Program-made: the position numbers and the translations under genes
Shown: in pieces, positions 3,676 through 64,000 of the stretch
How the letters are laid out: every line of letters begins with the position of its first letter
Position numbering within the stretch: position 1 is the stretch's first letter
Notes under the pieces: model-generated
The model's database searches: none
Seen by the model: only the letters and a program-made list of their open reading frames with translations
Told to the model about the DNA's origin: nothing
Source: Schmidtea polychroa
Taxonomy: Eukaryota
Reading direction: 5' to 3'
Length of the DNA: 64,000 nt
Assembly: GCA_044892525.1 (NCBI GenBank)
Contig: CM097885.1
Span: 35,528,001 to 35,592,000 of the forward strand

Positions 3676-4206
3676 ATGACTTTGTATTTACATAACCCTT
3701 GTTAAATTATTTTATTGTTTAAATAAATGTATGTTTTATTGATTTGTTTAATAATACCCTTGCGACTTGTTGAGTGTGACCAGCACCTTTGTGAACAATA
3801 CTCATAGGGGTGACAGAATATCTTTTCGGATAAACTCAGAGTATATATAATAATAATCCCTGTGTTTCAAAGACCTTTATTTTCATATATTAATATCTCT
3901 TGTCTTGAACTCTCGAATTTCAAATTAACAAAAAATTGAACTTTACATTAAAAAATTTGACCTTGAAAAGCATTTAAAAAAATTTCCACTAGGAGGGGGG
4001 TATGTGATCCAGAGGGCCCCTGATCCAGATGGCCCCCATCCATCTACTAACGCTTAATTTACTTTTATTGACAACATAAGCGTGAGTGTTTTTTTCCAGA
4101 AATTTGTGAGGTTGAATAATTCTAATCCGGTAAGTTTTATTAGCATTACCCATTTTTCTTTAGTTTGACAATATTAAAACCGTTCAATTTGTAGATGAAG
4201 CCAAGT

Positions 4207-17904: not shown

Positions 17905-20254
17905 CATTCTTATCAACTTTCTTCTTATCTATGCCCATTCAATGATCCATTAATGAATTATTCTACCAATTATTTTCACCCATTTGAATCGAGTAATGAA
18001 TAATTTCCTCACTTTAATGAAGATTCTTACCACCTTCATTGTTAATTTTATCAAAGTTTAAAGAATATTTCTCTTTACATTGCTTACCACTTTAGAATTT
18101 TTATCGAAATTTATGATAATTTGACTAATTCAATGAAGAATGAGTTAATTAATATATACTCTGAGTTTATCCGACAAAATATTCTGTCCCCCTATGGGTA
18201 TTGCTCACAAGGGTACTACTCACATTCAACATGTCGCAAGGGTACTGATCATTTAATGCTTTTATTTGAATGATTATTTAGGCAAATTTGATGTTTAAGG
18301 TATTGATAATTTTTAGAGTTGATGGTTTTAGTAAATATTCAAGTAAATTTCTATCATTTTTATGAATTTTTATAGTTTTTATGAATTTCTATCATTTTTA
18401 TGGATTTCCATTATTTTCATGAATTTCCGTAATTTTTGTGAATATCTGTAATTTAATGCTAATTCTAAGGTAAATTTAATTAATTTCTTGATAATTGAAT
18501 GTATTTTTATTGACTTGTTTTTTAATTTTAAATAAAAATTTATTTTTAATGAGGTTAATAATTAAAGTTTGTACAATAATCAAGTGGTAGGATAAATTTT
18601 GATGAGTATATTGAATAATTTTCTAAGAATTTCATGTTGACTGATTAAAAGTTTTAATGGTGATAAATTTAATTGATAAATTTAATTAATTTCTTGATAA
18701 TTAGTTGTATTTTATTGAATAGTTTTTAAATAAAAATTAATTTCATTGACAATTAGGTTAATAATTAAGTGATAGAATAAATTTTTGATGATAACTTTGT
18801 AATATATTTGAATAAATAATTTTTTCAATAATTTTCTAAGAATATTTACACATTGATGATCTTTAGAAACATAAGCTAAGAAACCAGTTAACTTTATCAG
18901 GGACTTTAAATTTACGTGATAATTATTGTAGGATATAAAGAAATTTAGTTTGCTGTTATTGCTTGAAAATGATTGGCTGAATCGATGAAGAATTATGATC
19001 AATCAATATATATCATCTCCAGTATTTGATGGTAAATATTTGTAGAAAATATTGATTTTTGATCTTTTAGTGAACTCTTACTACATAGCTACTAAATTAT
19101 TTCAATGGAAGAATATTTGGTGTCTATAACAATTAAGTCATATTTTTGAAGTTCTTTAAAGATTTTAAGAGGATTGATATATATTAAAGGGCTCAAGTGG
19201 GTAGAATTGAAGGATATATTCGGTTAGATGTTTAAAGGGGTAGAAATATTTGGTGAGAGATCGGTTAAGATGGGATATTGTTGGTTAAATTTAATGAGGG
19301 ATGGGTTAAGATGGGAATATATGATCTTTTGAGGGGATATAGTCGGTTAGATTTAATGAGAGATCAGATAAGGTGGGAATATATCATTGTAAGGGAGATA
19401 TAGTCGATTGAATTTAATGAAGGATGGGTTAAGATGGGAATATAGTCGGTTAAATTTAATGAGACATGGGTTAAGATGGGAATATATGATTTTTTTAATG
19501 GTGATGTTGGTAAAATATCATTGTTTTAAGGGAAATGTCAATTAGTCAGTTATGTATCAATAATAATTATATCGTTTTATTAGGTTGTGATTAATTCATT
19601 GTATATTAATTTAGATTTATGTTTTAGAACAATGTTCTATTAAGTAAGGATAATGATCGATTTACTTGGTTTTGACGATGAAAACTTTACAGATAAATGG
19701 GATTGATATCAACTTTAAATTATTTTTATCTTTATTTAGACGGACAACGACAAAAGTTGAGAAATATGGACTTAAAACATTGACTAAATAAAATTGATCT
19801 TTATTGGAAGAAATCTTGATTTTAATTAGTAATTAAATCGGTTGAATATTGGTAAAAATGATCATTTGAAGAAATATAATTTATTGAATGGATAAATTTA
19901 ATCTTTCAATGGGACCTAGTCAGTTATATTGTAGTAATATTTATTTAAAATATCGAGTACAGTGATTAACAAAAAATTAATTATAACCAGTTTTATCATT
20001 AGATTTTATAAATTATTTAGGGTTAATGATTTTACATGTTTTATAGGGAAATATTCGTGATAATAGGAATTAAAGTTAGAATTATAGTCATTTGAAGGGG
20101 ATTTTAAGGAATCTTATTAGTCTGAGGGGAATATATGATCCTTTACGGGTACTTATCATAGTAGATGGATTGGGCACCGCTGGCACAGGGCACCGCTAGC
20201 ACAGTACCCCCCCCCCTCCCCCGTCGGTAAGATTTTCAAAAAGTACATTTTTTT

Positions 20255-21225
20255 TCAAGGTCAAATTTAAACAAAGACATATGACTCATCAAGGTCATTG
20301 AAACAAAAACCATGAGTCATCCTATGACTCATCAAATTTCTCAAGGTCATTTAAACAAAGACCATGACTCATCCTATGACTTATCAAGGTCATTTTCAAG
20401 GTCATATGACTCATAATATGACCCATCAAGGACAAAAATTTTTTTCAAGATCATTTAAACAAAGACCATGACTCATCAAGGTCATTTTCAAGGTCGTATG
20501 ACTCATACTGTGACTCATCAAGGTCACTTTCAAGGTCATATGACTCATCCGATGAGTCATAAAATTTTCAAGGTCATTTAAACAAAGACCACGACTCACT
20601 CAAGGTCATTTTCAAGGTCATATGACTCATTCAAGGTCATTTTCAAGGTCATATTACTCATTCAAGGACATTTTCAAGGTCATATGACTCATCCAAGGTC
20701 ATTTCAAGGTCATATGACTCATTCAAGGACATTTCATGGTCATATGACTCATTCAAGGACATTTTCAAGGTCGTATGACTCATACTGTGACTCATCAAGG
20801 TCACTTTCAAGGTCATATGACTCATCCGATGAGTCATAAAATTTTCAAGGTCATTTAAACAAAGACCACGACTCACTCAAGGTCATTTTCAAGGTCATAT
20901 GACTCATTCAAGGTCATTTTCAAGGTCATATTACTCATTCAAGGACATTTTCAAGGTCATATGACTCATTCAAGGTCATTTCAAGGTCATATGACTCATA
21001 CTATGACTCATCAAAAAATTTCCAAGGTCATATGACTCATACTATGACTCATCAAAAATTTTCAAGGTCATTTTCAAGGTCATCTGAGTCATCCTATGAC
21101 TCATCAAGGTCATATTATTATTTTTTAAAATATTATTATTTTTATTATTATTTTCAAGGTCGCATGACTCATCCAAGGTCATTCTCAAGGTCATGTGAGT
21201 CATCGCGATGAGTCATCAAGGTCAT
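20255..21225. promoter_or_regulatory. Subterminal tandem array of TCAAGGTCA and TGACTCA/TGAGTCA motifs (putative enhancer)
   Basis: More than two dozen copies of each motif; they match the NR5A/ERR monomer site and the AP-1 site. Function is inferred. Confidence 0.6.
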
Positions 21226-21404
21226 ATTATTATTTTTTAAAATATTATTATTTTTATTATTATTTTTAAAAAATATTATTATTTTTAATTCTTTTCAAAG
21301 TTCCCGTCAACAAAAATTAATAATCGATAGCTCATTTTAAAGCTCAATCCAAGGCCTTTCGAATGAGCCATATAACTTGTTATTAAGATTATTATTTCTA
21401 AAGA

Positions 21405-21624
<220 letters not shown>

Positions 21625-21786: not shown

Positions 21787-22278
21787 CTAAATATATATAG
21801 TATGATATTCATTAATCAGTGTTGAACAGGCTTGACACTTGCGAACATTCTTCTCGTGACACTTAGAACAAACAATTACATGACCACATGGTAAATACAA
21901 AACCGAAACTCGATTTTCTTTACAAATTGAACAAGTTAAATACCTTTTCTTAACATCGTTCAGTTTTTTCGTTAGCTTATTTTCAATCAAATCGGTTTTT
22001 GCTATCGAATCATAAATCAATCTACTATATCTAGGTTTCAACCTTAAATACATACAACTCCAAAAGTATTCATTCAGTGAATCATTGTTTACTGATATTT
22101 TTTCTAAGTACATTAAATAACAAGATAACTTTAAAATGGATTTCTCATAATTAAATAAATCAAACAAATATTCAATAGAGGAATGTTTGAAAATCTTTAA
22201 AATATTTATGAGTTGCTTATCACTGTAAGTATCATGATTATTTATAAAATCTTCAACTGTGTTGTTAAAAAATTTCAA
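21787..22278 (-). CDS. C-terminal C3HC4 RING finger protein (IAP/MDM2-type RING); 5' part spliced or decayed
   Basis: CSICKENRVSVLYLPCGHVIVCSKC..CQACSTLI..IYI* at the extreme C-terminus. No ATG at the ORF start; candidate 49-bp GT-AG intron at 22384-22336 and an in-frame TAA upstream. Confidence 0.75.
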   Translation of the reverse strand: MKFFNNTVEDFINNHDTYSDKQLINILKIFKHSSIEYLFDLFNYEKSILKLSCYLMYLEKISVNNDSLNEYFWSCMYLRLKPRYSRLIYDSIAKTDLIENKLTKKLNDVKKRYLTCSICKENRVSVLYLPCGHVIVCSKCHEKNVRKCQACSTLINEYHTIYI

Positions 22279-23125: not shown

Positions 23126-25934
23126 TTAAATTTGATCTTCGTCCCATTCGCTGTCGTCAAAACTGGGACTTGGAGCTGGACCGAATTCCTCATCATATTC
23201 GCTTAATTCGTCAACTCCTAGATAGTGCCCAAATGCGTAACTTATGTTTTTTCCTAGCCACGCGCGCTTATCATCATTATTACTTAGGGCAATTTTCGAA
23301 TTTTTAAAAGTAAAAAGTTGGTGATTTCTAGTACCTATTCTAGTCTGCGGTACAGAAATCACCTTATTTGAATGAAAGCAATTTAGATATGTTTCATGAT
23401 TTATTGATGTCCCTGGTAATTTAACCCCCTTCGCTTTTACCGTTTCCTTACTACCTAAAAGACTATAACATTTAGGACGTAAGAAAACCCATTCAGAATA
23501 ACCTAATCCCTTGCTCTCATCTTTAAACTTCCCGATGACCGAGTCAAGGTTCCTATTATACAAGGGGTGTGTTGGATCGTAATTTGACGTATCCAATAAA
23601 TTATCAGAGATCATCTGAGGTAATAGAGTTGTTAATTTTAAATTTTTTATTTCTAGAAAAAAGCTGTCGGTATCACCGGCAATAATATTTATAATACATT
23701 TATATTGACGTCTGTACTTCTCCAAATCAATATATTGGAGCTGATACATCCGCAGTTTAGACAGATCTAGTACTGTTTGACCGATGTAGCTAGGTCTGTC
23801 TAAACAAATTGAATCTTTTTCCAAATGTGCCGCAATCAGATCGTTATCGATTCTTATAGACTTTCTGAAAGTCGGCTTTGAGGAGTATACTATCATCTTT
23901 TCGGATGAATTACACAACCTCAAATTCATTCGTTTTTTCAGATTTTCAACGGATTTACCGTACAGACTGTTATTATACAATTTAAACAAGTCCCTATATA
24001 TCTCGCTAGTAGACTGAGATCGTAAAGTGGTGTTGGTGTCTATGTAGGATTTAAAGATAGGTCCTTGTTTAAACTTTATACATCTATGAATATTTACAAC
24101 AACCGCACCTAATTCTATATACAATTTGAGAAGCCTCCAATGAAGAACATAGTTCCTCTTTGGCCAATGCGTAAGCATAAGCTTCTCAACTTTTGAATTA
24201 GGCGGGCACAACTTTTCCGGCGCAAGCGGAAAATCATTCAAAAAGTCATGCACACATTCCGGAATATCGATATCGACCTCCATAGTATACCCATATGGAA
24301 GGTTATCAATATCCGTGTTCATACATTCAAGTAAAACATCATTCAAGTTATTATTCACCCAAGAAAAATCACCATACGGAAGATTTTGGCTAAGAGCCCA
24401 ACCATATAAATTATTTATATCAATGTACAATAATTCTGTATCATCTGAAGTAGCCGTGTAATGTTTGTTAACAAATGTTAACCCACCCCGGATACCTCCC
24501 TCATAGAAATTATACATTTCCATGTCCTGCAAAAGTTTTATGGGTTCCGTTAATGTCATAAGCGCTGAGGCCCATGACATACCGGGAATCCCGTAGAAAT
24601 TAAGAGGATCCAGACCATTGTAAGCAATTGCCTTACCGCGGAATTGCTGAAAATAGTCTGCGAGGAGGTATACGTCCAATTTTAGGTAGATTAACATATA
24701 ATCTAACAAATTATTACAGTTATGCTGACTCCAAATTAGTTGAGCCTCAGCGTACTGATCTTCCGTAACATCAGAGCAAATAGGAGGTAATTCTAAAGTC
24801 GATTCAAGAACATCCAAAGAAGTAGCGAAATTATATGGAAAGATACCTTTAGAGTGAATCATCGACCCTTGAAAGACAGACGAAGTTAACGGAAAAGTAG
24901 TTAAGGTTTTCACAGCTTTGGCTAAAGAACAATTAACAAATTGCATGCTGTCAATAAAACGAACAGGCAATTTGTTAATATATGCAATTAAAGATATAAA
25001 TTTTTCTGTAGAGGTAGGTATAATATTAAGTTCCCAAAGGGGAAAATCACTGAGACCATGTTTTAAAATATGGTGGAGGTCATAGCCTCGTAAATTATGA
25101 AAGACAACAGGTAACAACTTATTAATCCTGCGAGAGACATTGCATTTCCTACATGCCGCTCCGACATATCTACCTGTAAAATGGCAATGATCTCTCACAG
25201 GATTAATAATAGCTTTTTTACACAAATAACAAATAGTGGTAGATCGAAAGGCACGCTCCTGAGCAAAAGACAAAGTAGACATACCTTTATGACCTTCAAG
25301 TTCATAATATGGCAGGACAATTGTGACAGCAATTTCCTCCACTTTCCTCAAAAAATCCAAAATACAATTAGGTCCAAAAAAATAATAATAAAATTTAGTG
25401 TTTGTATAATTATTAATTAATAAAAGACCTGCTGATATGGGTAAATGTATTTGATGATATGTTTCATGTTCTGGTAAAACCGATTCAAAATCAGCATAAA
25501 TTACGAAGGGAGGTGTAACGGTTTTTGCGTAATCTGTGAATAATAAATCCTTATTTTTAGGAAGTGTATACAAGGTTGTGCCAGTCTGATTTTTACAGCA
25601 TAGAGCAACATGCTGATCGAAAGCATTCTTATATCTAAAGCCATTTAAACAATGTGGGCACCAGTTACACCTTATTTGAACATTTACATTTTCATTTAAA
25701 TGACAATTCATTAATTTGTCCAAGTCTGTCACTGCCGTATAATGATATTTATCTTTATTACTCAAAAGTAATAAATAAATCGGCCTACCATCTATAACCT
25801 TGGAGCGATGTATGATATTAAGATGAGGGTGGTGAGCTACATAATCCTGAGAAATATCACAATCAGAACTGGCTGGATTATACGAAAGAACGTTTATGCT
25901 TAATTTTAAATCACGATTTTTCCTTTCAAATTTG
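23126..25934 (-). pseudogene. pPolB of element A, 3' part (separated from its 5' part by insertion B)
   Basis: Full exonuclease and polymerase motifs. Removing B and one TSD gives CPMRLCNIPK-FERKNRDL, matching CPMKLCDIPKFERKNNDL of X. Confidence 0.94.
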
Positions 25935-26267
25935 AGTAGTGAGGAATCTATGCACCCCAGCACCCCCACCCTAAAAAAAAACAGCGCTATTGACCCATAT
26001 TTTCCACATTTATATGCTTTTTTACCCCATATTCTTCACTTTTTTTAACTTTTAAACTTTGTCCCCTATTGCCATTAACCCTTAATTTCTTCCCTTAAAA
26101 GTAAAAAAGTTCGGAATAGATGTATTTATAGATTAGTAATTCCGAGAAAAGGTAACGGGGTGCATAGATTCCTCACTACTTGGTCTTAAGGATTTAATGT
26201 TATAAGGATTTAATGTTATAAAAATATCAGATTACCTAATTCATAATGATCTAGGTCGCCTGATCAC
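25935..26267 (+). repeat. Left TIR of B, with an internal inverted copy of the terminal 24 bp at 26157-26180
   Basis: Near-perfect reverse complement of 40834-41165. Confidence 0.96.
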
Positions 26268-26313
26268 CTTAAGGTTTTGAAAGTTTTAAAAATAAAAAAT
26301 ATTATGAAATAGT

Positions 26314-26702
26314 AAAACTGCTCTGAGAGGACAGTGGTTTTTTTTTTTTTTTTTTCACTGTCCTCTCAACAGTTTTTTTTTTGATCCGGATCATTTTTTT
26401 TTATTCAACCTCTTTCGTTTATCAAATCTCTTCCAATATACAAGCTGGCCAGACTCATACATCAGAATCAATTCGATAATAGCAGCACACCTTATTATTC
26501 GCTTCTCGCTCGAATACGATTTCATCGGCGTTTTAAGTGTGCTGCTCGAAAGTACAAATGAATTCGAAAGCGAATCCGAAAGAGGTCCGAAAACAACTGA
26601 GAAATAAATGTGCACATTACCGGAATCGATCCGGGGGTGTTCGAAAGACAGGTGGCGATAATTACCGGTTCGCCACCATCACCCGTTTCAATATTTTTTT
26701 TT
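26314..26702. ncRNA. Putative structured RNA/ssDNA region
   Basis: 13-bp stem 26324-26336/26356-26368, 10-bp stem 26481-26490/26537-26546, 8-bp stem 26651-26658/26670-26677; five CGAAA motifs; T-run at the end. Confidence 0.4.
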
Positions 26703-26849
26703 CATATTTATGTTTAAAAAATAATTAATTAATAAAAAAATAAAATAAAATAAAATAAATAAAATAAAATATACAAGTACTTTATAAATATAAGATACCC
26801 ACACTATTATTTTCAAATTTTTAATATTATTTTATGTTGAAAAAAAACT

Positions 26850-26923
26850 AACCTCAGATGTGATTTGAACCACTATCCATTTGAACCACTGTGCCAGTCT
26901 ATTCCCACTGCGCCATCAAGGTT
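26850..26923 (-). ncRNA. tRNA-like putative Pol III gene 3
   Basis: A box TGGCGCAGTGG, duplicated B box GGTTCAAAT, followed by a T8 run; overlaps the end of ORF 26873-27169. Confidence 0.5.
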
Positions 26924-27169
26924 TGAATTTTTGTCATTTTTTAGACTATAAATAATCGATTCAAGTTCTTTAACTCTTTCCTGTAATTGTTTCATTTTCT
27001 TTAATCTTATATCAGCAACATCTACAGCCTTCATATAAAAATGTCGATACTTTTCATTATCTACCATCAACTCTTTGATGTATTCTAATGGTTCTTCTTC
27101 TCTTCTTTTCATTCTCTTATGTTTAACTTCATTCAATTCATTTCTCATTCTTTCTTTTAACTCATCCAT
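26873..27169 (-). CDS. Hypothetical small coiled-coil protein of B
   Basis: 98-aa ATG ORF with an AAAAATG context like other B genes; charged, helical composition. Confidence 0.55.
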   Translation of the reverse strand: MDELKERMRNELNEVKHKRMKRREEEPLEYIKELMVDNEKYRHFYMKAVDVADIRLKKMKQLQERVKELESIIYSLKNDKNSNLDGAVGIDWHSGSNG

Positions 27170-27337
27170 TTTTATAAATATTTTTTTATTGGATATATTA
27201 ATTTTTGGTAGCTTAAGTTAAAACGTTTTTGATCTTAAATTTCCAAGAGTTGCCGTTGACCAATCTCATTAAAAATTTGTACAAGTACTAAATCGAGTAT
27301 GCTGATCAATATTTCGTTAAAAAAAATTGAAAAAAAA

Positions 27338-27410
27338 TGACCGAAATGGGATTTGAACCCATTGGTATTGGCAATGCAGTCGAGTGCTATTACCACTAAG
27401 CTATTAGAGC
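27338..27410 (-). ncRNA. tRNA-like putative Pol III gene 2 (GCA at the anticodon position, anticodon stem unpaired)
   Basis: 73 nt; A box TAGCTTAGTGG; D stem GCT/AGC; perfect T arm ATGGG-TTCAAAT-CCCAT; T-run immediately downstream. Confidence 0.62.
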
Positions 27411-27579
27411 TATACTCAATATAAAATAAGTTGTTAATGTGTGACTATTTATTGATGAAATTGATAATTAATTATTCATTTTCTCGACAACTACCACTCA
27501 GATCCATCTGAAAATTTAAATATATACTAAAATAAGTACGCTGAATCAGATTCCGTTGAAAAAAAATATCGATAAAAAT

Positions 27580-27653
27580 TGACCAAAATCGAAAATTGAA
27601 CCCGGTACTCCCGGTGATAAAATTGAAGCCTATTCCCACTCAGCTATAATGGC
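27580..27653 (-). ncRNA. tRNA-like putative Pol III gene 1
   Basis: 74 nt; A box TAGCTGAGTGG; B-box-like GGGTTCAAT; same GGTCA 3' end as gene 2; T5 downstream. Confidence 0.5.
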
Positions 27654-27709
27654 TTACATAATATATTTAATTATTCCTATTTTATGTGTGTAAATTTTAA
27701 TATATAAAA

Positions 27710-29002
27710 ATGAATAACATAAATCTTAAAATTCAAGAAAAAAATAAATTAAATATTGATTATAATAAAGAATTTACTCATGAAATTAAAAAAAATGATA
27801 TTTTAAAAATCTCCCCTACGTCAGGATCGATTGCAAACTTAAATCGTAGGGGTGATATAGTTTTTCAATCTCTTCAAACATCAAACCCTATAGATATTTG
27901 TAATGCCAAATTATATTATAAAATCGAATTAGAAATTGAAGCAAACAAAGATATAACCCTAGAAAATAATTTCTTTCCAAATTTATTCTCCAACATGAGA
28001 TTAAAACTAGGATCATCAGAAATTGAAACTGTTTTGCATCCGGGAGTATATTCTACAATGTTAAATTTTATTTTGACTGGTTGTGATTATAAAAACGAAT
28101 ATGGTGAATTAACAGGTTGGATTCCTGATGTTAATAAAGGGGATTTAGATAAAGATGGTTTAGATGTAAACCATGGTTACCATAAAAGAGCTGAACTTTA
28201 TAAATCTAAAAAATTTGAAGGTTATTTTGAATTAAAACACTTGTTTGGATTCCTTCAAAACTATAATCGTATACTTCATAATGTTTTTATAGAATTCATC
28301 TGTAATAGAGTAGAAGGTGATAAAAGATTGTTCTATGGAGCTGTAGATACAAAAGCTAAATTAAAATTATCAACACTTGAATTACATATACCTGAATGGA
28401 CATTAAACCCACATTCTGAGATTAAACTCCTTGAAAGATTAAATTCCAACAAGTCTATAAATGTAAATTATTTAAATAGAATCTGTAGTGAATTTAGTAT
28501 GACAGAGGGTTCAACATATTCTATAAAGGTAGCAAATTTAGCATACCGACCAAGATATATCTTGATTGGATTCAAAGAAGTAGATTCATCTTTCCAAAAA
28601 AATAACAACTTGTTTATTCAAAAGATTGGAGTTGATAATTTAAAAACAATCCAAATTCAATTAAATAGTTCTTATTATCCAATAAATAGAATGGAATTTA
28701 ATATTGAAAATAATGAAAACATATTCCCATATCTAAATTATATTGAAACATGTTATGATTTCAAAGTTGAACCGCAATTAAGTTTAGAAGATTTCAAAAA
28801 TTTATATTCTATATTTTGTATAAATGTTTCAGACCAAGATGATCGCCTAGCCATAAATAATGTTGATGTTACACTTCATGTAACAAAGGATTCTAATTTT
28901 AAAGCTAAAGTATATACATTAATATTAGAAGAAAAGAAAATAGAAATGAAATTATATGGTGGAAAGATTTCAATAATCGAAAATGTTAGGGGAGATTCTT
29001 GA
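27710..29002 (+). CDS. Double jelly-roll major capsid protein of B
   Basis: 430 aa; NLNRRGDIVF, NNFFPNLFS..L, PRYILIGF, LNSSYYP, IFCINVS motifs typical of Polinton MCPs; gene context. Confidence 0.85.
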   Translation: MNNINLKIQEKNKLNIDYNKEFTHEIKKNDILKISPTSGSIANLNRRGDIVFQSLQTSNPIDICNAKLYYKIELEIEANKDITLENNFFPNLFSNMRLKLGSSEIETVLHPGVYSTMLNFILTGCDYKNEYGELTGWIPDVNKGDLDKDGLDVNHGYHKRAELYKSKKFEGYFELKHLFGFLQNYNRILHNVFIEFICNRVEGDKRLFYGAVDTKAKLKLSTLELHIPEWTLNPHSEIKLLERLNSNKSINVNYLNRICSEFSMTEGSTYSIKVANLAYRPRYILIGFKEVDSSFQKNNNLFIQKIGVDNLKTIQIQLNSSYYPINRMEFNIENNENIFPYLNYIETCYDFKVEPQLSLEDFKNLYSIFCINVSDQDDRLAINNVDVTLHVTKDSNFKAKVYTLILEEKKIEMKLYGGKISIIENVRGDS

Positions 29003-29031
29003 TATAATCCCTGATATTTTAACATTTTAAA

Positions 29032-30441
29032 ATGTCTCTAAATAAATATTGGAGATGTGAAAGTTGTAATTGTCAAGTTACAAGACATCATAAAGCAAGT
29101 CATTTAAAAACTAAAAAACATACAGGAGGTGATCTAATTCCACGAGCTGGAGGCGATTTGCAATCTTCAAAAACAACATCTTCAATATTAAAACCTTTTA
29201 CTACAGAAAAATATCCAGGTGAAAGACATTTATTTAAACACAACTATACTGGACCAGGAACACGTCTAGATATTAGATTAGATGAAAATAATAATCCCAA
29301 ACAAGGAGAAGAACCAATAAATAGAATTGATCAAGCAGCTTTAAAACATGACATTGCATACAATTCAACAAATCTTAGAGATAGACATGTTGCAGATGTG
29401 AATTTAATACATGATTTAAATAGTATCCAAAATCCATCAACCCAAGAAAAGGTTCAAAGAGCTCTAGTTAAATTAGCAATGAAAGGTAAGATTTTCATAG
29501 GCTTAGGACACAGTCCGATCACCATGGGTGCAAGACTTCCTAGAATAGCAAAAGATGTTGCTTATAAAAAGATTATCGAACAATCAGACATTGAAAGATC
29601 CCTCGAGAGTACAGCCAAGACTAGTTTACAAACCCCAACAGAATCAGAAATAAAATATGCAAAGGAATTACACCATGAATTTAGAAAAAATAAAAAATAT
29701 TTAAAAGTTCAAGTACATGAAAAAGATCAAACATGGTCTGCAGATTTAGTCTTTATGCCCAAATCATCAGACCCTGAAAAATATAAAATAATTTTAACTG
29801 TAATAGATTTATATACAAGATTTGCTTTTGCAAGGTGTTTAGAAAATAAAACAGGATATTCTATTACAGAAGCATTTGAAAATATATTTGAAGAAAATCA
29901 AAGAATCCCAAAATATTTATGGTGTGATAAAGGAACAGAATTTTATAACAAAGTTTTTACAAAGTTTTTAAATGAAAATGATATTAAATTATATTCAACA
30001 GAAAACGAAGGAAAAGCAGTCGTAGTTGAAAGATTAAATAGAACATTAAAAAATAAAATGTGGAAATATTTTACTGCTATTGGAAAACAAAAATGGAACA
30101 ATGAATTGTTACAAAAGATTGTAAATGAATATAATAATGATGTACATAGTTCTATAAAATTAACACCTTTAAATGCTTCCATGAAGCCTGAAACCATTAA
30201 AGTGGTAAATATTGAAAATGATGTTATTGAAAAACCAAAGTTTAAAATTGGTGACCGAGTAAGAATATTTAAATATAAAAATTAATTTGAAAAAGGATTC
30301 ACAGCAAAATGGACAAATGAAATTTTTATTATAAATAAAATAAATTATACAACTCCAATAACATATAGCATCTTTGATTTAAATAATGAAAAAATATTAG
30401 GTAGATTTTATAATAATGAACTACAGAAAACTGATTTTTAA
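29032..30441 (+). CDS. Zinc finger + parvovirus-type PLA2 (PLA2X) + rve integrase fusion, with a premature TAA at 30283-30285
   Basis: CESC..H..H; HNYTGPGT..D.AALKHDIAY; WSADL, IDLYTR, CDKGTEF, VERLNRTLK. The frame continues after the stop as FEKGFTAKWTNEIF..GRFYNNELQKTDF*. Confidence 0.92.
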
Positions 30442-30452
30442 GTCGACAAGCC

Positions 30453-31244
30453 CTAAAACAAACTTTTCCATATTTCAGCTTCTTCTCTATCCAAATAAAT
30501 ATAATTATATTTTTCTTTCCAATGATTATCAACAAACATATCAAACATATTCTTATCAGGTTCAACATTTGAAAATAAATCATTATAAATCATATTCTTA
30601 TCACGGCGATCTAATTTAAAAAATATAAAACAATTGGAATTATTTCTTATTGAATTTTTATCTAAAGCATAATATGTTTGAGATATATAAATAACATTAC
30701 AATTATTATGTCGACCTCGTGTAAAGTAACTCTTTTGAATCTCTTGATTTTTCATGTTGACAACATCATCAAATATAACTAGATTCTTTTTATCTTTAGG
30801 AAGTAAATCACAATGTAAAACATCTTCAGGTTTATTAGAGAATAAAACTTGAATTGCCTCCTGCCCTTCTTCACAAATATAATCATTTTTATTACTAATA
30901 TCTGATTCTAAAATCTTTTCCTTATACCAATCAACCATATCACAAGGTTGAAAAACTTCTTCAGGACACCTATGTTGATTTTTAAAAATATCAATTATTG
31001 CTTTTTTAGTTAATTTATTTTCAAATCCACATTTCAAAAGTTGTAATTCTGGTTGATTTATGGTTGTAGAATAAAAGATTAAATTATTATAATCTAAAAA
31101 ATCATCTTCAAGTAACATTCTCAAAACAAGTACATTCTTTCCACATCCAGAAGAACCAACAATTAATAATCTAAAATTATCAGGAAATACTTTATTATTG
31201 AATTTACTCTTATGTCTATTTAAAATTGGTTTCCAAGTATCCAT
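30453..31244 (-). CDS. A32/FtsK-like DNA packaging ATPase
   Basis: Walker A GSSGCGKN (variant), Walker B LVIFDD, FTRGRH..ISQ, IRNNSN. Confidence 0.93.
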   Translation of the reverse strand: MDTWKPILNRHKSKFNNKVFPDNFRLLIVGSSGCGKNVLVLRMLLEDDFLDYNNLIFYSTTINQPELQLLKCGFENKLTKKAIIDIFKNQHRCPEEVFQPCDMVDWYKEKILESDISNKNDYICEEGQEAIQVLFSNKPEDVLHCDLLPKDKKNLVIFDDVVNMKNQEIQKSYFTRGRHNNCNVIYISQTYYALDKNSIRNNSNCFIFFKLDRRDKNMIYNDLFSNVEPDKNMFDMFVDNHWKEKYNYIYLDREEAEIWKSLF

Positions 31245-31260
31245 TTTTATTTATTATAAA

Positions 31261-31839
31261 ATGACAACTGAAGAATCTTTGCAAGAATTAATAAATTCAA
31301 ATAAAAATAAATCAGTAGTAATTGATGGTAAAAAATATTTTATTGGAAAACATGTAAAAGAACAAGTTAGAGCGAAGCTCCACGAAGCTAAAGAAGGTGG
31401 CATTCTTCCATTAGCTGCTTTAATACCTGCAATCATTGCTGGTTTATCAGGTGCTGCTGGAATAGCTGGAGGAATTGCAACTACAGTTCAAAAAGCTAAA
31501 GAATCTCAAAAGACAGACCTAGAAAAAGAAAAACTACAAACTGAAATCGATTCAATGAAGAAGGTAGGGCAAGCTAAAGGGGGAGTGTCCGTTGGAAAGG
31601 GTCTCTATCTTAATCCATATGAGGGGAGTCGGCAAAAGTCTCAGGGCAAAGGTCTCTATCTTGATCCTTATAAAGGTAGAGGTTTAAATGATTTTTTAAA
31701 AAATCAAATTTCTACATCTGAATCTTTATCTTCAAAAGATAAAGAAGATTTAAAAAAAATATGTAAATCTTTAAAGAATGGATGCCTTTGTAAAACTAAA
31801 AATGGTAAAGGATTATACTTGAAGCCCTTCGAACTATGA
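31261..31839 (+). CDS. Putative virion core / membrane-active precursor with adenain-type cleavage repeats
   Basis: ATG 31261; EGG-ILPLAALIPAIIAGLSGAAGIAGG hydrophobic segment; three GKGLYLxP repeats. Confidence 0.7.
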   Translation: MTTEESLQELINSNKNKSVVIDGKKYFIGKHVKEQVRAKLHEAKEGGILPLAALIPAIIAGLSGAAGIAGGIATTVQKAKESQKTDLEKEKLQTEIDSMKKVGQAKGGVSVGKGLYLNPYEGSRQKSQGKGLYLDPYKGRGLNDFLKNQISTSESLSSKDKEDLKKICKSLKNGCLCKTKNGKGLYLKPFEL

Positions 31840-31861
31840 TACCATTTTTGATACCATTAAA

Positions 31862-32755
31862 ATGGTATATGAAGAAAGATTAGCACTTTTAAAAAAATTA
31901 CAATCAGAACAAGATAAATATAATAAAAAAGATACAACTCAACATGCTGAATCTATAATATTAAATGAGGTAATAACACAACAACAGGGGCCAACAATTA
32001 AAGCTATAAAAGAGTTGGAAGATTTCAATGAGCAAGCAAAATTTAAAGAGTTAGAAGATAAAAAACAAAAAATAAAAGAACTAGAGTGGCAGGATAAAGA
32101 AAAAGAATCCAGTGAAAACCATCCTGAAAGTCATTCTGAAAGAAATCAAAGAAAACGCAGAAGAATTTCTAATGTGGAAGAAGAAGAAATGTTTTTAAAA
32201 ACAAAACCTCTTAAAGTTGATCCTAAAATTAGAGATGATTTACCTCCTTCAATTAGACCCACATTTAATACTAATACTGAAGGATATCAAATAATAACAA
32301 TTAATAAACAAAACTTTACTTTATATTCAAATTCAGAAAATAAATCACGTATTCATTCACAAAATGTTTATAATAATGAATATTTAGACTTTGAATTTAC
32401 AGATGATTTTTATAGATTACTTTGTGGATATTCTTCAGATGATGTTGAAGAAATTAAAAAATATTTAAATTTAATAAAATTAATAAGAGCTAGTTCTAAA
32501 GCAAAATATATTCAAGATTTAAAGAATTATTTAAATAAAAATGAAAAGGGTTATGTTGTTACAGAGGGAGAGGGATTAATTAGTGAAGGTGGTAAACCAA
32601 ATCCCATCAATCTTTTTATTGAATTAAGAAAACTATTAGCTGCAAGGAAAGCAGGACATAATAATTTAGATTCTGATATTTTAAAGATTTCTAAAGATTT
32701 GTTAAAACAAGGAATAATTTCAAAAGATAAATTTAATAAGTATACGAAGTTATAA
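31862..32755 (+). CDS. Conserved Polinton protein of unknown function (putative virion protein)
   Basis: C-terminal GEGL..LRKLLAARKAGHNN..I..I...L...GII motif recalled from Polinton proteins. Confidence 0.65.
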   Translation: MVYEERLALLKKLQSEQDKYNKKDTTQHAESIILNEVITQQQGPTIKAIKELEDFNEQAKFKELEDKKQKIKELEWQDKEKESSENHPESHSERNQRKRRRISNVEEEEMFLKTKPLKVDPKIRDDLPPSIRPTFNTNTEGYQIITINKQNFTLYSNSENKSRIHSQNVYNNEYLDFEFTDDFYRLLCGYSSDDVEEIKKYLNLIKLIRASSKAKYIQDLKNYLNKNEKGYVVTEGEGLISEGGKPNPINLFIELRKLLAARKAGHNNLDSDILKISKDLLKQGIISKDKFNKYTKL

Positions 32756-32777
32756 ATACGAAGTTTTAAAATACAAA

Positions 32778-33203
32778 ATGACTCCTTCAATATTAGATTT
32801 TTTAAAAACATTTGGAATAAATGCAAAAACAAATTTTGATTTAAAAGATTATGCAAATTATTTAAATTTAAAAATTAAAATATTAATGAATGATGAATTA
32901 TCAAGTCTGGAGAGTCCCCTGAATATAATAATCAATTATCAAAATTCAAATGAAAAAGGATCTCATTGGGTTTGTATATATAAGAAATCTATCTACTTTG
33001 ATTCTTTTGGGATTAAACCTACTAAAGAAGTTGAAGATTATCTCTTGAGGGGTTCTCCGATTGATTCCCCAAATGGTTATACTTTTAACTCTTTACAAGT
33101 TCAACCTTTGAATACTAAAATATGTGGTATTTTAAGTTTATATGTTTTGTATAGATTGAATAAGGGAGAGAGAAAGGGCATACGCAGGATTTTGAATCTA
33201 TAA
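32778..33203 (+). CDS. Adenain-like cysteine maturation protease
   Basis: GSHWVC, YFDSFG, Q..NTKICG give the His-Asp-Gln-Cys catalytic pattern. Confidence 0.92.
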   Translation: MTPSILDFLKTFGINAKTNFDLKDYANYLNLKIKILMNDELSSLESPLNIIINYQNSNEKGSHWVCIYKKSIYFDSFGIKPTKEVEDYLLRGSPIDSPNGYTFNSLQVQPLNTKICGILSLYVLYRLNKGERKGIRRILNL

Positions 33204-33289
33204 TTCAAGAAATTTATAATGATCTAGAATCTCTACTATAAGGATTTTTACTATAAGGATTTTTACTATATGAATTTACTACTAAAGAA

Positions 33290-34054
33290 ATGGAGCTTCA
33301 CAACCCTCCGGAAGATAATTTAAAAAAAATGGTAAACATAATGTCAGATAAATATTCAAGAACTTTATCTATAAATTCAAAAGAATCAGACTTTACTGTA
33401 AACTTTCAAGATTCAATTAAATTAGATCAAAATTTAAATTATGAATTGGGGCTATTATGGTTTTGTGCTTATAATACTATTTTTAATATAACTAAAGATA
33501 ATAATAAATTTACTATTTAAACTCGTGATGGGCATAAACCAGAAATTATAACAATAGAACCTGGGGCATATGAGATAAAAGATTTAAATGATATACTTTC
33601 TAAAAAAACAAATGAAGGTATTAAAATTAAAATGGATATACCAACTTCAAAATGTGTAATGACTTTGAAGAATATAAAAATTAGTTTTTTAGATAATTGT
33701 TTCTTTCACACAGTTTTAGGATTTAAACCTATGGATATAACAATAAAAGAAGATAAAATAATAACATCAGAACATATTATAAAAATAATAAATACAAACA
33801 CAATAAATATTCATTGCGATTGTATAACAGGTTCTTATAATAATGGTAAACAAACAAATGTTTTATATTCCTTTCCCTCAAACACAGTTCCTATGGGATA
33901 TAAAATAGTTGAAAGAATGAATCCTCCAAATTATTTACCTTTATGTAGAAAATATATAATGGATATTAATTTTAAAATTCTTAATCAAGAAGGAGAATTG
34001 ATTGATTTTAATGGAGAAGAGATTTCAATGTATTTACATTTGAAACAGGTTTGA
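33290..34054 (+). pseudogene. Minor capsid (penton-like) protein of B with an in-frame TAA at 33518-33520
   Basis: Both ORFs share a frame; YELGL..YNTIFNIT..NNKF, PGAYEIKDLN, INIHCDCITGSYNNG, PMGYKIVE, IDFNGEEI. Confidence 0.88.
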
Positions 34055-34078
34055 AGATTCATTTTAAATTATTAATAA

Positions 34079-35089
34079 ATGAGTTCTTATATTCCATGTA
34101 ATAGAGGTGGTGGAACAATAAAAACAGGGTTTAATACAGAAGAAATATTAACTTTAACAGAAAATAAATATATTAATGAAAGAGGTGATTCAATGAAGGG
34201 TGATTTAATTTTAAATGGACACAAGATAAAAGAATTATCTTTTCCAACTGATGAAGCTGATGCAGTTAATAAGAAATATGTAGATGGTGTTAAAAAATAT
34301 ACTGATTTAACAACAACAAGAATTGAAAGTTCATTAACAACAAAAATTGATTCAATGGAATCAAAGCTTAATAATATCGAACAACGATTTAATGATAAAT
34401 TTGACAAGTTACAAAGTCTGTTAACTGAACAAGTTGTAAAGTTAAATACTGCTATATTAAATTCTAAAGATAAACAAATTATGAATACTAAATTTAATGC
34501 AATATATAATATAATAAATGAGATGATTACATCATTTAATAAAAGAATTTCAAATTTAGAGTCTCATGGAACACACATTAACACCACACATAGTATTAGA
34601 AAAAGAGCTGCTGAATTAGAACAGAATAAAACATTATTACCCCATACATTTAAACATTTTATAGAACCAAGTTTAATAACAACAAACAGTAAAGAATGGG
34701 GTGTTTTTATGGTTGTAAAAATTATTGATCCTTATTTCTTTTTGTTTGATGATGATAATGAAAGAATGAAATGGTTTGTGAAATGTGATTATAATAGTAA
34801 GCTTGAAAAGGGTGATGTTATAATGACTAGTTATGATTTACCACACGGAGATTGGTATGTTAATACTCATTCACATGGACTACATAAAGTTAAAAGTAAG
34901 AATATTCATTTTTCTAGTTCACTTGTACAATATATAGATTTAATATTTTATGAAAAAAAGGTTGATGTTGATGAAGTTCGTAAAGCATTGAGAGAATTGT
35001 ATAAAGATATCCTCTCAACAAGAGTTTCTTTTGATATCCGAGTATTGGTACCAGATGGTGCTCAGAAGAATAAAGTCTTATTTTTTTAA
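34079..35089 (+). CDS. Putative fibre/spike protein
   Basis: GDSMKGDLILNGHKIKELSFPTDEADAVNKKYVD fibre-type repeat, then coiled coil and a globular C-terminus; follows the penton gene. Confidence 0.6.
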   Translation: MSSYIPCNRGGGTIKTGFNTEEILTLTENKYINERGDSMKGDLILNGHKIKELSFPTDEADAVNKKYVDGVKKYTDLTTTRIESSLTTKIDSMESKLNNIEQRFNDKFDKLQSLLTEQVVKLNTAILNSKDKQIMNTKFNAIYNIINEMITSFNKRISNLESHGTHINTTHSIRKRAAELEQNKTLLPHTFKHFIEPSLITTNSKEWGVFMVVKIIDPYFFLFDDDNERMKWFVKCDYNSKLEKGDVIMTSYDLPHGDWYVNTHSHGLHKVKSKNIHFSSSLVQYIDLIFYEKKVDVDEVRKALRELYKDILSTRVSFDIRVLVPDGAQKNKVLFF

Positions 35090-35097
35090 TTATTAAA

Positions 35098-35688
35098 ATG
35101 GAAGAAGTAAGAGAAGAAAAAATTTACCCAGAATTGAGATCATCAGGATATTATTCTTCTAAGGCCTCGGCTCCCACAGAACTTGAAATTATGAGAGTAA
35201 AAGAATTTAAATCAGAAACCTTACATTTACAAGATTTATTAAAGCATTATAAAAAAATTAAAAATAGATGGAATAAAGGGAATACAGTTTTAAAAGTTAT
35301 AGGTTATTCTTTAGGATTTGCATCTGCAATATTAACAGTTATTTTACCCATAACTTTACCAGTTGTTACTCTTGCACCTGTAATACTTGGAAGTATTTCT
35401 GTGGCTGATGGTTTCTTAACTGAAATAGTTTCATTATCTTATACTTCTAAAAAGAAAAGTTTATATAGAGAAGTTTGTTTATCAATAGAATTAGGAATCT
35501 CTAAATTATTTTTATTTCAATTAAAAGCTTTGGAAGATGGAATCCTGACAGACGAAGAAATAATGAAATCAAATCAAATAATACAAGATATAAAGAATGA
35601 GGTTATAAGATTAAAAATGGAGGGCATGGTGGCTAATGTTATAAGTAATAAAAAAACATCTCGAGAAAAATGGTTAAAGAATTCTTAA
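35098..35688 (+). CDS. Membrane-hairpin protein (resembles the adintovirus GasderminX family)
   Basis: Basic helix, ~40-aa hydrophobic hairpin, KKK, KALEDGILTDEE. Confidence 0.6.
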   Translation: MEEVREEKIYPELRSSGYYSSKASAPTELEIMRVKEFKSETLHLQDLLKHYKKIKNRWNKGNTVLKVIGYSLGFASAILTVILPITLPVVTLAPVILGSISVADGFLTEIVSLSYTSKKKSLYREVCLSIELGISKLFLFQLKALEDGILTDEEIMKSNQIIQDIKNEVIRLKMEGMVANVISNKKTSREKWLKNS

Positions 35689-35788
35689 TTATAAAATGGG
35701 TGTATTTTTAAAAAAGTAGATCAGGTTGCTATAGTTGCTTAAATTAATTGTCGACATTTTATTATTAAAAAATTAAATATCGTTGGTT

Positions 35789-36343
35789 TCAGTTATGGTT
35801 GAAAGCCAACCTATGAATCATTAATTTATGATCTTTAAATTCTTTATCACTTAGACCTTTTATATATTCAGGATCAGTATTAAAATATTTAAGTTCTAAA
35901 CATATAGGATTAAAAACTTGAGAATATAAAGGTTTCTCGATTTCTCTCTCGGGATAAATAATTTCAACATTATAAATATCAAGATCAGTAATCTTTGTAT
36001 CATATAACTTATTCAACTTTTCTAGATTTTTTATTATAGGGATTAAATTATTTCCAATAGGTAGAGTTGTCTTTAAATCACTTAGTATGAATCTCTTATC
36101 ATCATAATTTGATAATGATATTTTTTGAGATTCTATCAAGTGAATATCATGGTTTTCACTTTTAAGTTGATGTATTTCATCAATTTTATCTTTATGATTT
36201 GGATTCAATGTATCTATATAATCTTGATGAGAAAGATTCTTTGCAACCACTCTCTGTATTCCTTTACATCTGTTATCCTTTAAATTAGTAATATTTTTTA
36301 TAATTTCAAAAATGTTATTTTCTTGATTTTTAGTTTCCATCAT
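35789..36343 (-). CDS. Stand-alone paralogue of the pPolB C-terminal (thumb + tail) region
   Basis: KGIQ..HQDY..LKSE.H.I.L..NYDDKRFILSDLKTTLPIGN.LIPIIKNL..LKYFNTDPEYI shared with the adjacent pPolB; has its own ATG. Confidence 0.8.
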   Translation of the reverse strand: MMETKNQENNIFEIIKNITNLKDNRCKGIQRVVAKNLSHQDYIDTLNPNHKDKIDEIHQLKSENHDIHLIESQKISLSNYDDKRFILSDLKTTLPIGNNLIPIIKNLEKLNKLYDTKITDLDIYNVEIIYPEREIEKPLYSQVFNPICLELKYFNTDPEYIKGLSDKEFKDHKLMIHRLAFNHN

Positions 36344-36367
36344 TTTATAGTGTTAAAATTCTAATTC

Positions 36368-39300
36368 TTAGACCAGTCGTAATTGATTTATAATTATTTC
36401 TGCAGTAATGCTTTTTAACATTAATTTATGTGATTTAGAGTCTTCTGGTGTTAGTCCTTGGATATATTCAGGATCAGTATTAAAATATTTAAGTTCTATA
36501 GGTTTTATATTTTGAACTTGATTATATAAAGGTTTAGGAATTAATATTTCAGGATATTGGATTTCTACTTTAGCAAGTTGAAGGTCTGTAATCTCTAGGT
36601 TATAAATTTCATTTATTTTATCAAGATTTTTTATTATAGGGATTAAATCATTTCCAATAGGTAATGTTGTCTTCAAGTCAGAAAGTATAAATCTTTTATC
36701 ATCATAATTTGTTATAGCAATCTTGTTACACTCTTCAAGATATATATTATGTTTCTCTGATTTAAGATGATGGGTTTTAGCAATTTTATTTTTATAATTT
36801 ATATTTAATGAATCTTTATACTCTTGATGTGTGAAGGTTTTTGACACTGATTTTTGAATTCCTTTACTTTTATTTTCTTTATAGCTTTTCGGGTTTTCAG
36901 GGAATGAAGGATATTCAAATGTGTGATCTATTTCAACAGATCCTTCTCCCTCCCCTATTATAAATTTTATTGTATGCTCTTTCATAATTGGTTTGTCTTT
37001 CATTTCAAGAGAATATTGTTTAGGTCTAATAAACACTCCTCCACTTATTGGAGTATTTGGTTTTTCATCTTTAAAAGTAAATAATTCTCCAGAGTTGTTT
37101 ATTAATTTATTTAAGGTTTCGTTTTCACTTATTTCCTTTTTTAAATCTTTACTATGACCTTTTAAAAACATACTATCAGTGTCCATAGCATGCATGGATA
37201 TTCGATCTCCAAAATGGGGTACTAGAACATCATAGTAGGTCTCATACATTTGAAGCTTTGAAAGTTCTAAAATTGAAAAATCTATAAAGATTGGTTTATT
37301 ATAAGTTTTTACAGAGTTTTTAATCTCTATAGCTATAAGGTTACTAGAGAATATCTCTGCATTTTTAAATGTAGGCTTTCCAATTATTCGATTATATTTA
37401 TTAAGATCTTTTGTTGTATTGGTTAAGAGCTCTACACGAGTATATTTATCAATATTCTCCATTGTCTTTCCAAAGACTGCATTGTTTAAAAGTTTATAAA
37501 TCATATCAAGAAAAGCATTTCCAGCTCTCTTTGCTGCATTTCTTTTTAAGATATTTCCCTCGATGAATTTTTTCATAAAAGGAGCTTGTCGAAATTTAAT
37601 TATAGAATGTACTTTTTTTAAAACCATTCCATATGAGAGATAAAACTGGAGGAGTCTATAATGACAAAGATAATCAGTTTTATCTGTTTGATCACATAAA
37701 AGTTTTATACATGGTGTTCTATTCTGAGCAATCTGCCAATCTGATAGTTCTTCAGGAGAGATCTTTCTTCTTACAGGAGCAAATGGAAAATATCTAGTTC
37801 TGGATTTTATTTCATTGGGATATTCAAGATCACATTCTACAACATATCCAAATTGAGAATCTTTTGGTGTTTTTAGAATTTCTTGTATTAATTCCTCAGT
37901 GGGTTCTGTCCAGGTGAACTTGCCAATTGAAAGGTATTGAGTCATTACTCCCGCATATAAAGCTGTTGCATCTATATACATTATTTCAGAAGGATTAGAA
38001 AGACCTTCCATTATTTCCTTACGATCTTCTGGGTTTGTTATTTCTACATATAGAGCATCAGGATCTTTGAAAAATTTAGGATAAAGAGTTGTAAAATTAT
38101 TAGCATTTATTTCTCTATTCCCTTGTACTGAAGAAATACCTCCTCTAATATTATGTTTATATACATTAAACATATCAAGCTCAACTAATAATTCAATAGT
38201 TTTATTTCTTACTGCTACATCTTCATCAGTCCATATGGTATATAATAATATATCCCAAGCTAGAGAGGGAGCGGTTATATAATTATAAGGTTTTAATTCA
38301 AAAGCTTTTGAAAATGTCTCGAAGCAATCAGCTAAGATATAAACATCCAAGGAAAGATACATGTCAGTATATTCTCCAAGGTTTCTACAGTTGAATAGAT
38401 TCCACATTTTAACTGCACGGGAATATTCCTGATCAGAAATCCCTGATTGTGTTAAAACAGAAAAGAAATCTTCTTGGGGTGGGAGTAATTCATTATATTT
38501 TTCAAAGGAGTCTATATAATCATATGAATAGATTCCTTTTGCTAGACAGGTATTATATTCCTCTAATGGAATATTGTTTTTTAATAACACATGTTCTTTT
38601 GTATATTTAAAATCCTCAGGGTTCATAGTTTTAGCAATCCCATCCAAAGACATCCCTAAGAAATTTAACGAGTCCAAAAACTTAAAGCATCCATATTGAA
38701 TGCTTTTATATTTTTCTTTTGTAAGTCCAATAACCTTGAAAGAGATTTTAGCATTTGCGGCCAGATGCTTAATGAATAGGTGAATATCATAGCCAAAAAG
38801 ATTGTGAAATATAAATGGTATGTGTGTTGGTTTTTTACAATTGAGATTACATTTTTATGGGCTGCTCCTCTGTAATTATTTTCTCTTTTAAAATGATCAT
38901 GGTCTGCAACCTTTGGCTCCTCATCCTCCTCCTCCTGAATATCAAACTCTTGTTTACACATCCAGCAGTGTGTTGCATTTTTATATTCTTCCTCTTGTTC
39001 TTCTGAAAAATTCATAGGAAAGTTGGATTTTAATATTATATATAATTCATGTTCTAGATTATTTAAAGTTTTAACAAAATGATCTAGAGTCTCTTTGTCA
39101 GAAGTTCCTCTAAATGAATATTCTCTAGATTCTACAAGTTCTGGATAATTACTTTTAAAAAACATTTTATAAGCAGAGGGTAATTGTTTTGTTAGTTTTA
39201 CAGTATTAGTTTTTGTTCGTCTTAGTTTTACATTTATAGCTTCAAAATCACAATAAACCACTCCCAATGCTTCTAATAGATTGGAATAGTTTTTAAACCT

Positions 39301-40760: not shown

Positions 40761-40833
40761 TTTTAAAAGAATTTTTTGGTTGGATACGATGTTTTGGTTT
40801 TGATATTAATTTTTATTTTCTTTAAATCTAAAA

Positions 40834-41165
40834 GTGATCAGGCGACCTAGATCATTATGAATTAGGTAATCTGATATTCTTATAACATTAAATCCTTATA
40901 ACATTAAATCCTTAAGACCAAGTAGTGAGGAATCTATGCACCCCGTTACCTTTTCTCGGAATTACTAATCTATAAATACATCTATTCCGAACTTTTTTAC
41001 TTTTAAGGGAAGAAATTAAGGGTTAATGGCAATAGGGGACAAAGTTTAAAAGTTAAAAAAAGTGAAGAATATGGGGTAAAAAAGCATATAAATGTGGAAA
41101 ATATGGGTCAATAGCGCTGTTTTTTTTAGGGTGGGGGTGCTGGGGTGCATAGATTCCTCACTACT
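40834..41165 (-). repeat. Right TIR of B, with an internal terminus copy at 40921-40944
   Basis: Reverse complement of 25935-26267. Confidence 0.96.
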
Positions 41166-41171
41166 AATTTG

Positions 41172-42659: not shown

Positions 42660-42708
42660 AAAGAGAAGTAGCTGCATGCTCACTGCAAACTACTGTATAC
42701 GGGGTTTG

Positions 42709-42770
<62 letters not shown>

Positions 42771-42859
42771 AAAGAGAAGTAGATGCATGCTCACTGCAGA
42801 CTACTATGTAGCTGCATGCTTACTGCAAACTACTGTATACGGGGTTTGATTATTATTTA

Positions 42860-45165: not shown

Positions 45166-45550
45166 TTAAACATCAAATTTTTTGTACAATAACCAAGCTA
45201 AACAATGTTGACCGCATGTTTGGGTCAAGGGATTTTGAAACATAGTTTTATTATACACAATAGGTTTCCCCATTGTTTGTAGTTTTGATATCAAGAAAGC
45301 CGGGTAATAAAAACCCATAGGATCGAACACGAATATATTACCAGGTTTCATATATATAGCTATCCAATGTTCTCCACCGAGATGAGACGATTGAGTATTG
45401 ACGATTATTGCTTGATTATTGCTCAAATATGGAATTTTATCTAGAGGAAAAACTCCAACAAATTCATTTCCCAATATCTGTTTTCCGATTTTATTGACCT
45501 GAACAGAACTACTTAAATAAATCCAGAGTATAAAAAACAACTTACTCCAT
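45166..45550 (-). CDS. Adenain-like protease of A, with a probable 37-bp intron (45545-45509)
   Basis: FVGVFPLD, IVNT..GEHWIA, FDPMG, Q..CGQHC. Splicing GTAAGT..TAG yields MDSVQVNKIG. Confidence 0.88.
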
Positions 45551-45577
45551 GATAACTTTTTGTGTTTCAATATACAT

Positions 45578-63806: not shown

Positions 63807-63822
63807 AAAATAATATAAAAAT

Positions 63823-63999: not shown

Positions 64000-64000
64000 A

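Follow-up and report, generated by a model that had tools for sequence, protein, structure and literature searches.

The locus and its features

The window, by which we mean the whole 64-kb stretch of DNA analysed here, holds nested mobile elements, and just inside the left end of one of them, element A, lies a dense array of two short words, TCAAGGTCA (N sites) and ATGA(C/G)TCAT (A sites). Element A is a Polinton/Maverick, as identified by its protein-primed family B polymerase, double-jelly-roll (DJR) capsid and maturation protease. The features of the locus are as follows.

3847..4048, − strand: homologous end of the sister element X, with a single TCAAGGTCA (3958–3966) and without an AP-1 word
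20154..20159, + strand: left flank TATCAT, a probable 6-bp target-site duplication of A, judged from the empty-site continuation in run X5; its partner copy is expected past position 64000
20160..20254, + strand: left end of Polinton A, with an AGTAGA start, two 16-bp repeats (20172–20204) and a C-run; homologous to the X end
20255..21224, + strand: the array, with 43 TCAAGGTCA-type sites, 35 ATGA(C/G)TCAT-type sites and 5 AACAAAG words
20468..20999, + strand: recent tandem duplication within the array (277-bp unit, 1.9 copies, 98%)
21285..21400, + strand: post-array block with CGATAGCTCAT at 21325, before which run X1 contigs have loose ends (n = 30)
21405..21622, no strand: (TAT)n microsatellite
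21787..22113, − strand: RING-finger gene of A (PF13920, 39.3 bits, cut-off 27), ending toward the array
23126..41732, − strand: protein-primed DNA polymerase gene of A, split by the nested Polinton P
25935..41165: Polinton P, inside the polymerase gene of A (target-site duplication AATTTG)
45166..45633, − strand: adenovirus-type protease of A (PF00770, 26.8 bits, cut-off 21.3)
45578..46801, − strand: DJR major capsid gene of A, broken, its frame ending near 45869 (310 aa; most relatives ~405–425 aa)
63807..64000, − strand: A resumed after the nested element B, with a chromodomain-like tail, read by eye and presumably as in Polinton integrases; the element runs on past 64000 to its far end

The A polymerase has thousands of relatives, many with PF03175, and is 71–80% identical to the polymerase of X; its named relatives come from diverse animals (~35% identity). 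The A polymerase ORF itself matches PF02945 only, below the cut-off, and the second ORF of the X polymerase matches PF03175. The A capsid (score 0.97) falls in DJR clusters, with a recognition value of 2279, slightly below the 2300 mark. The copy of A in the window is broken, its polymerase being split by P, its capsid frame short and element B inserted into it.

Element A resembles known Polintons and Mavericks in its AG-start end, polymerase, capsid and protease, and 6-bp target duplications were seen for the nested P and B. Its AGTAGA start resembles the (AGT)2 motif reported at Maverick ends (PMC8097293), and the terminal inverted repeats (TIRs) of Polintons are reported to be 100–1500 bp long (PMC10748475), which gives enough room for the array. 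The portions of PMC10748475, PMC8097293 and PMC6431247 that we draw on describe short end motifs only, whereas A carries a kilobase of transcription-factor words, and no such array in Polinton ends was found in open-licence papers, a body of literature with Repbase Reports probably outside it.

Nested Polinton-type AGTAG ends stand at 7816 (element C), 15867 (D), 20160 (A), 25935 (P) and 48150 (B), and the nesting is of the Russian-doll kind, with A inside a B/D-type copy and both P and element B inside A. Element B is a 15.7-kb foldback (48150–63806, target-site duplication AAAATA) whose arms are 99.8% alike over 7.4 kb and which lacks any ORF of at least 100 aa. The integrase ORF of P (29032–30285) also has a phospholipase A2-like domain, and at 42660–43200, upstream of the A polymerase, GTAGCTGCATGC-containing blocks alternate with (ATT)n tracts.

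The array starts 95 nt inside the end of A (20160) and spans 95–1065 nt from it, and the subterminal position proposed in an earlier note on this DNA is borne out: sequence to the left of 20160 matches an arm of element B as far as the junction, and contigs from sequencing runs X1 and X5 mark the same end. The loose ends of 31 X1 contigs differ from one another ahead of 20160 (agreement 0.44), and in run X5, four contigs continue past 20159 as the empty site (element B sequence) does; 20160 is therefore a true, many-times-inserted end. All visible genes of A point toward it, and this copy of the array thus sits downstream of them.

Composition and layout of the array

The 970-bp array holds 30 of the 31 exact TCAAGGTCA copies of the window, all on the + strand, the remaining copy lying outside it on the − strand at 3958–3966; in 100 shuffles, the mean for the window was 0.50 and the largest count 3. 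All 25 exact ATGA(C/G)TCAT words of the window are inside the array (shuffle mean 0.54, largest 3), as are 29 of its 31 TGA(C/G)TCA words. When near matches were included, with one mismatch allowed for N sites and two for A sites, the array comprised 43 N sites, all in a single orientation, and 35 A sites, together accounting for 694 of its 970 bases.

Neighbouring sites form 77 pairs, 48 of them mixed, 18 N-N and 11 A-A, and their periods are largely fixed: 12 bp in 10/11 A-A and 13/18 N-N pairs, 10 bp in 18/24 N-A pairs and 8–9 bp in 19/24 A-N pairs. The earlier note had described more than two dozen copies of each motif, alternating with variable spacers; the copy numbers hold for exact sites of both kinds, the alternation is not strict, and the spacers fall instead into few length classes. 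Site variants include TCAAGGACA and TCAAGGTCG, the former being the commonest N variant (5 copies) and one that we take to fall outside the strict receptor-site consensus. The word AACAAAG, presumably of Sox/TCF type, occurs five times, in the long (14-nt) spacers.

The array was also considered as a structured RNA, a reading that was rejected as two Rfam matches were far under the gathering score and block-shuffled arrays fold equally well; the single-strand folding score (z = −9.7) is accounted for by the palindromic words.

The array in sequencing runs and in a second organism

Contigs aligned to 19900–21400 at 85% likeness numbered 24175 in run X1, 7730 in X5, 446 in X11 and 7118 in X18, where depth does not equal copy number and a gap at 21124–21276 is uninformative since the contig alignment skips repeats. 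Run X11, tentatively taken to be RNA, was left out as a measure of expression, its contigs covering the flank as well as the array. Many length variants are evident from contig joints over the array, including one X5 contig that skips exactly 277 bases at 20468–20999; an apparent skip of the whole array in one X1 contig (20268 to 21299) was rejected, its short side of 21 letters being too weak. The array is thus a non-random, family-wide feature that is present in many copies and variable in length.

Run X18 stems from a second organism, organism B. Here array bins were covered, with zero depth at 19900–20154 and 21277–21400 and little at the end of A. At the loose ends of these contigs, both motifs are intact around a 4-nt spacer that is found in 0/24 N-A junctions of the array in the window. 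In organism B, either the element end would have drifted with the words kept, or the words would belong to another repeat.

Sequence constraint and the case for a neutral repeat

A check put forward with the earlier note was whether substitutions avoid the motif cores across units. Nucleotide diversity (π) was 0.063 in the N core and 0.106 in the A core, in the latter mainly at outer and central positions, and the 3-nt spacers exceeded the cores (0.37 for A-A, 0.145 for N-N); values were similar with the duplicated 277-bp block dropped. The outcome is nevertheless divided, as π in the 14-nt spacer (0.057–0.071) is as low as in the cores, but this spacer holds AACAAAG and is thus not a clean neutral control.

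Distinct variant types that keep the known consensus made up 6/13 against 10/54 expected, with a pooled nominal p of 0.02 for units that are not independent; taken per motif, p was 0.10 and 0.13, and 0.20 for the N motif with a transition weight. Among the 40 of 108 contig differences listed, 33 fell within the array: 14 revert to the main motif, a class confounded because short contigs map to several units and apparent reversions are thereby favoured, 10 affect spacers, 6 fall on tolerated positions and 3 belong to none of these classes. Within these listed array differences, all 6 changes away from the main motif that were seen in many contigs are at tolerated positions, the remaining 3 changes occur in 1–2 contigs per run, and spacers account for 10 of the 19 non-reversions while making up 27% of the bases (nominal p 0.017). 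The central G forms of the A motif all occur in A-A doublets (6/6, Fisher p 0.064); a micro-inversion without selection can be the source of such a central C/G swap.

These data bear on the possibility that the array is a neutral minisatellite, in which a quasi-palindromic unit was expanded by slippage or template switching and matches host motifs by luck. Tandem arrays of some kind are found at all Polinton-type ends in the window, the 277-bp duplication and the many length variants fit such a process, as does the low variability of the 14-nt spacer, and the N-T-A junction contains a palindrome, GTCATATGAC, so that one word could be the source of both motifs. Against it, 72% of the array bases belong to two distinct 9-bp words, each a perfect consensus, spacer sequence changes while spacer length stays fixed, and organism B retains the words with another spacer. 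We consider a neutral origin unlikely, though it is the strongest of the alternatives.

The sister element X and the other ends

The left end of A aligns to the X end with a score of 71, compared to 32 for the best of 1000 shuffles and 19–25 for the ends of C, D, B and P. The first N site lies 96 nt from the end in A and 83 nt in X, in equal orientation, confirming the earlier observation that X carries one copy at the equivalent position. No TCAAGGTCA site was found at the ends of B, C, D or P in the 64-kb window.

Two further observations concern words in these elements. The word TATATACTC(C/T)GAGT followed by TATCCGA is conserved at 3847 (−), 18153, 21641, 51943 and 60017 (−). It recurs in X, D, A and B, both where genes are present and where they are absent, and is a candidate for a cis signal common to these elements. 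In the B/D family, 26-bp repeats (16281–16368, 17658–17719, 55474–55509 and 56451–56486) contain RTTAYGTAAY, presumably a PAR-bZIP/NFIL3-type word. They hold 11 of the window's 14 distinct sites, among them a TTACGTAA variant in element B; there are 16 matches against a shuffle mean of 3.5 and a largest value of 14. The B/D family may be a second one with its own host-factor array.

The homologous position of the first site is of interest for a possible role as an origin-auxiliary element, in which host factors bound near the end would aid protein-primed replication of the excised element. In adenovirus, NFI and Oct-1 aid replication from auxiliary sites within ~50 nt of the end, and the homologous regions (hrs) of baculoviruses also have an origin role. 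The distances and equal orientation in A and X are compatible with such a function, and the hrs are described as multifunctional (PMC13513840). Most of the array, however, lies 100–1065 nt from the end, compared to ~50 nt for the adenovirus sites; X carries a single site, and none is present at the ends of B, C, D or P. As A and X have one N site in common, with AP-1 words and expansion confined to A, a tuning element fits better than an essential origin, and an origin-auxiliary role appears rather improbable.

The stretch from the second site to ~21620 could be a captured module derived from another repeat family, either a passenger or later co-opted. Around 100 nt separate the N site from a shared downstream word in X, compared to ~1370 nt in A. 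The loose ends before 21325 indicate that the post-array block (21285–21400) is probably common to another repeat family, the N-T-A junction recurs in the unrelated contig L005 together with a CGATAGC(C/T)CAT word, and in organism B the motifs are present while the end of A is hardly matched. On the other hand, a search for inverted ends flanking the array found none (45/500 and 268/500 shuffles score as well), the first array unit is ordinary and its site is homologous to that of X; we regard capture as quite unlikely. An independent MITE or foldback was rejected, as the array is without inverted ends of its own and the 25 longest of 38 inverted pairs are all internal to the array or to the AT-rich tail.

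Finally, the words might serve an element-encoded protein, e.g. in packaging or integration, like the subterminal repeats of cut-and-paste transposons, which the strictly one-way, subterminal N sites and the location of further A genes past 64000, outside the window, would allow, but no bZIP- or receptor-type domain was found among the 26 ORFs scanned (small and spliced frames being read by eye) and both words are exact host consensus sites, so that this proposal is very doubtful.

Searches for similar arrays

With the A capsid protein, and likewise with an alignment of 39 relatives, no related locus with ends was confirmed in viral contigs, and the N-T-A junction gave four matches in viral contigs, all single and with no array. 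No similar arrays were present among the pattern-scan matches (50, and at least 124 with full flanks for 80), and 0/180 loci had at least three of both motifs within 1 kb, N-rich loci being (GGTCAA)n-type runs. The motif pattern had no matches in prokaryote genomes and two in metagenomes, contigs L005 and L006, neither of which is an array of A's kind. L005 has, within positions 200–600, three copies of TCAAGGTCA along with a CRE, the N-T-A junction of the array and a CGATAGCCCAT word resembling the one at 21325 in A. The AT-rich L006 carries triplets of ATGA(C/G)TCAT with a 14-bp period at 1288–1333 and 1876–1910, one beside TCAAGGTCA. Repeats of animals may often combine receptor and bZIP words.

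Candidate factors and known systems

The motif identities given in the earlier note agree with published data: TCAAGGTCA is the Esrrb motif, which Nr5a2 binds with similar affinity (bioRxiv 10.1101/2022.05.17.492379), and TGACTCA is the TRE/AP-1 motif (PMC13513840). A flatworm receptor also binds the former, as Schistosoma mansoni FTZ-F1 bound 7/7 YCAAGGTCA oligos in vitro, compared to 4/30 others and 0/2 CCAAGGCCA oligos among those tabulated (PMC8673669, supplementary file 4). In the array, 33/43 N sites read YCAAGGTCA and 0/43 YCAAGGCCA, and the CCAAGGCCA variant is absent; the common variant TCAAGGACA is absent from the FTZ-F1 oligo table. ERR has been reported missing in Schmidtea mediterranea (PMC8363021), which leaves NR5A/NR5B as receptors if the host is a planarian. 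On the AP-1 side, planarian jun-1 is reported to peak at wounds at 45–60 min (bioRxiv 10.1101/2022.04.05.487111).

Judged by its sequence, the array shares a trait of viral enhancers, namely an abundance of consensus sites for host factors within viral DNA that is non-coding. The baculovirus hrs are likewise rich in bZIP words (CRE/TRE), and their enhancer strength is described as following motif number (PMC13513840). They consist of ~72-bp repeats around a 30-bp EcoRI palindrome and work with the viral IE1, whereas the array has units of 8–26 bp built on 9-bp words, occupies one end, is denser and has one-way receptor sites added. No CRE was found in the 64-kb window, and classification of the array as a baculovirus hr was rejected as it lacks ~72-bp repeats around a 30-bp palindrome. 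The major immediate-early enhancer of HCMV also combines reiterated short repeats with AP-1 and AGGTCA-type sites, AP-1 being needed for reactivation (PMC7690695); this enhancer comprises two AP-1 sites plus three RAR/RXR elements beside a defined promoter, in contrast to the dozens of NR5A-type monomer sites of the array, which lie downstream of the visible genes. A mobile element that spreads TCAAGG(T/C)CA, a site bound by a pioneer receptor, is known from the Nr5a2/Esrrb sites of SINE B1/Alu in mouse embryos (bioRxiv 10.1101/2022.05.17.492379), where each retroposon carries one motif and binding was demonstrated by CUT&Tag, while A presents an array of putative binding sites in a DNA element.

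A proposed slippage-amplified enhancer as the best explanation

On balance, these features and the parallels with known systems lead us to favour, with some reservation, the view that the array is an enhancer, amplified by slippage, on which NR5A (FTZ-F1-type) and AP-1 factors of the host would act in the manner of baculovirus hr or HCMV enhancers. The earlier note had suggested an enhancer or an origin-auxiliary element; its enhancer half is supported in part by the enrichment of tolerated variants, the retention of the motifs in organism B and the viral precedents, and is weakened by the mixed result of the core test and by the sister element X having a single N site and no AP-1 word; its origin half is weaker still.

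The amplification and the family-wide presence are observed: the type of end that has one TCAAGGTCA in the sister family bears in family A a site block interleaved with 9-bp AP-1 words, and this block grows and shrinks by slippage or unequal exchange. Factor binding and an effect on transcription we infer along the following lines. An NR5A-type receptor (FTZ-F1/HR39) would bind the one-way N sites as a monomer and Jun/Fos-type bZIP dimers the AP-1 words, perhaps with a Sox/TCF factor on the AACAAAG spacers. Once bound, these factors would make the chromatin accessible and increase the element's transcription, either in particular cells or upon stress or wounding. If the array is part of a terminal inverted repeat, its mirror copy would be upstream of the gene block.

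A broader and more speculative scheme, which we think improbable, is that the Polinton families of this animal each amplify their own host-factor code near the ends, NR5A and AP-1 (with Sox/TCF) in A and PAR-bZIP in B/D, with A wired to injury and developmental signals. If such a per-family code were true, wounding or regeneration would trigger expression of A, and its many copies would scatter ready-made enhancers responsive to injury across the host genome. For vertebrate Mavericks, particles are reported not to have been observed. For Polinton activation, the array names two candidate host factors and a stimulus, and if the host is a planarian, in which jun-1 rises at wounds, it would tie Polintons to injury signalling.
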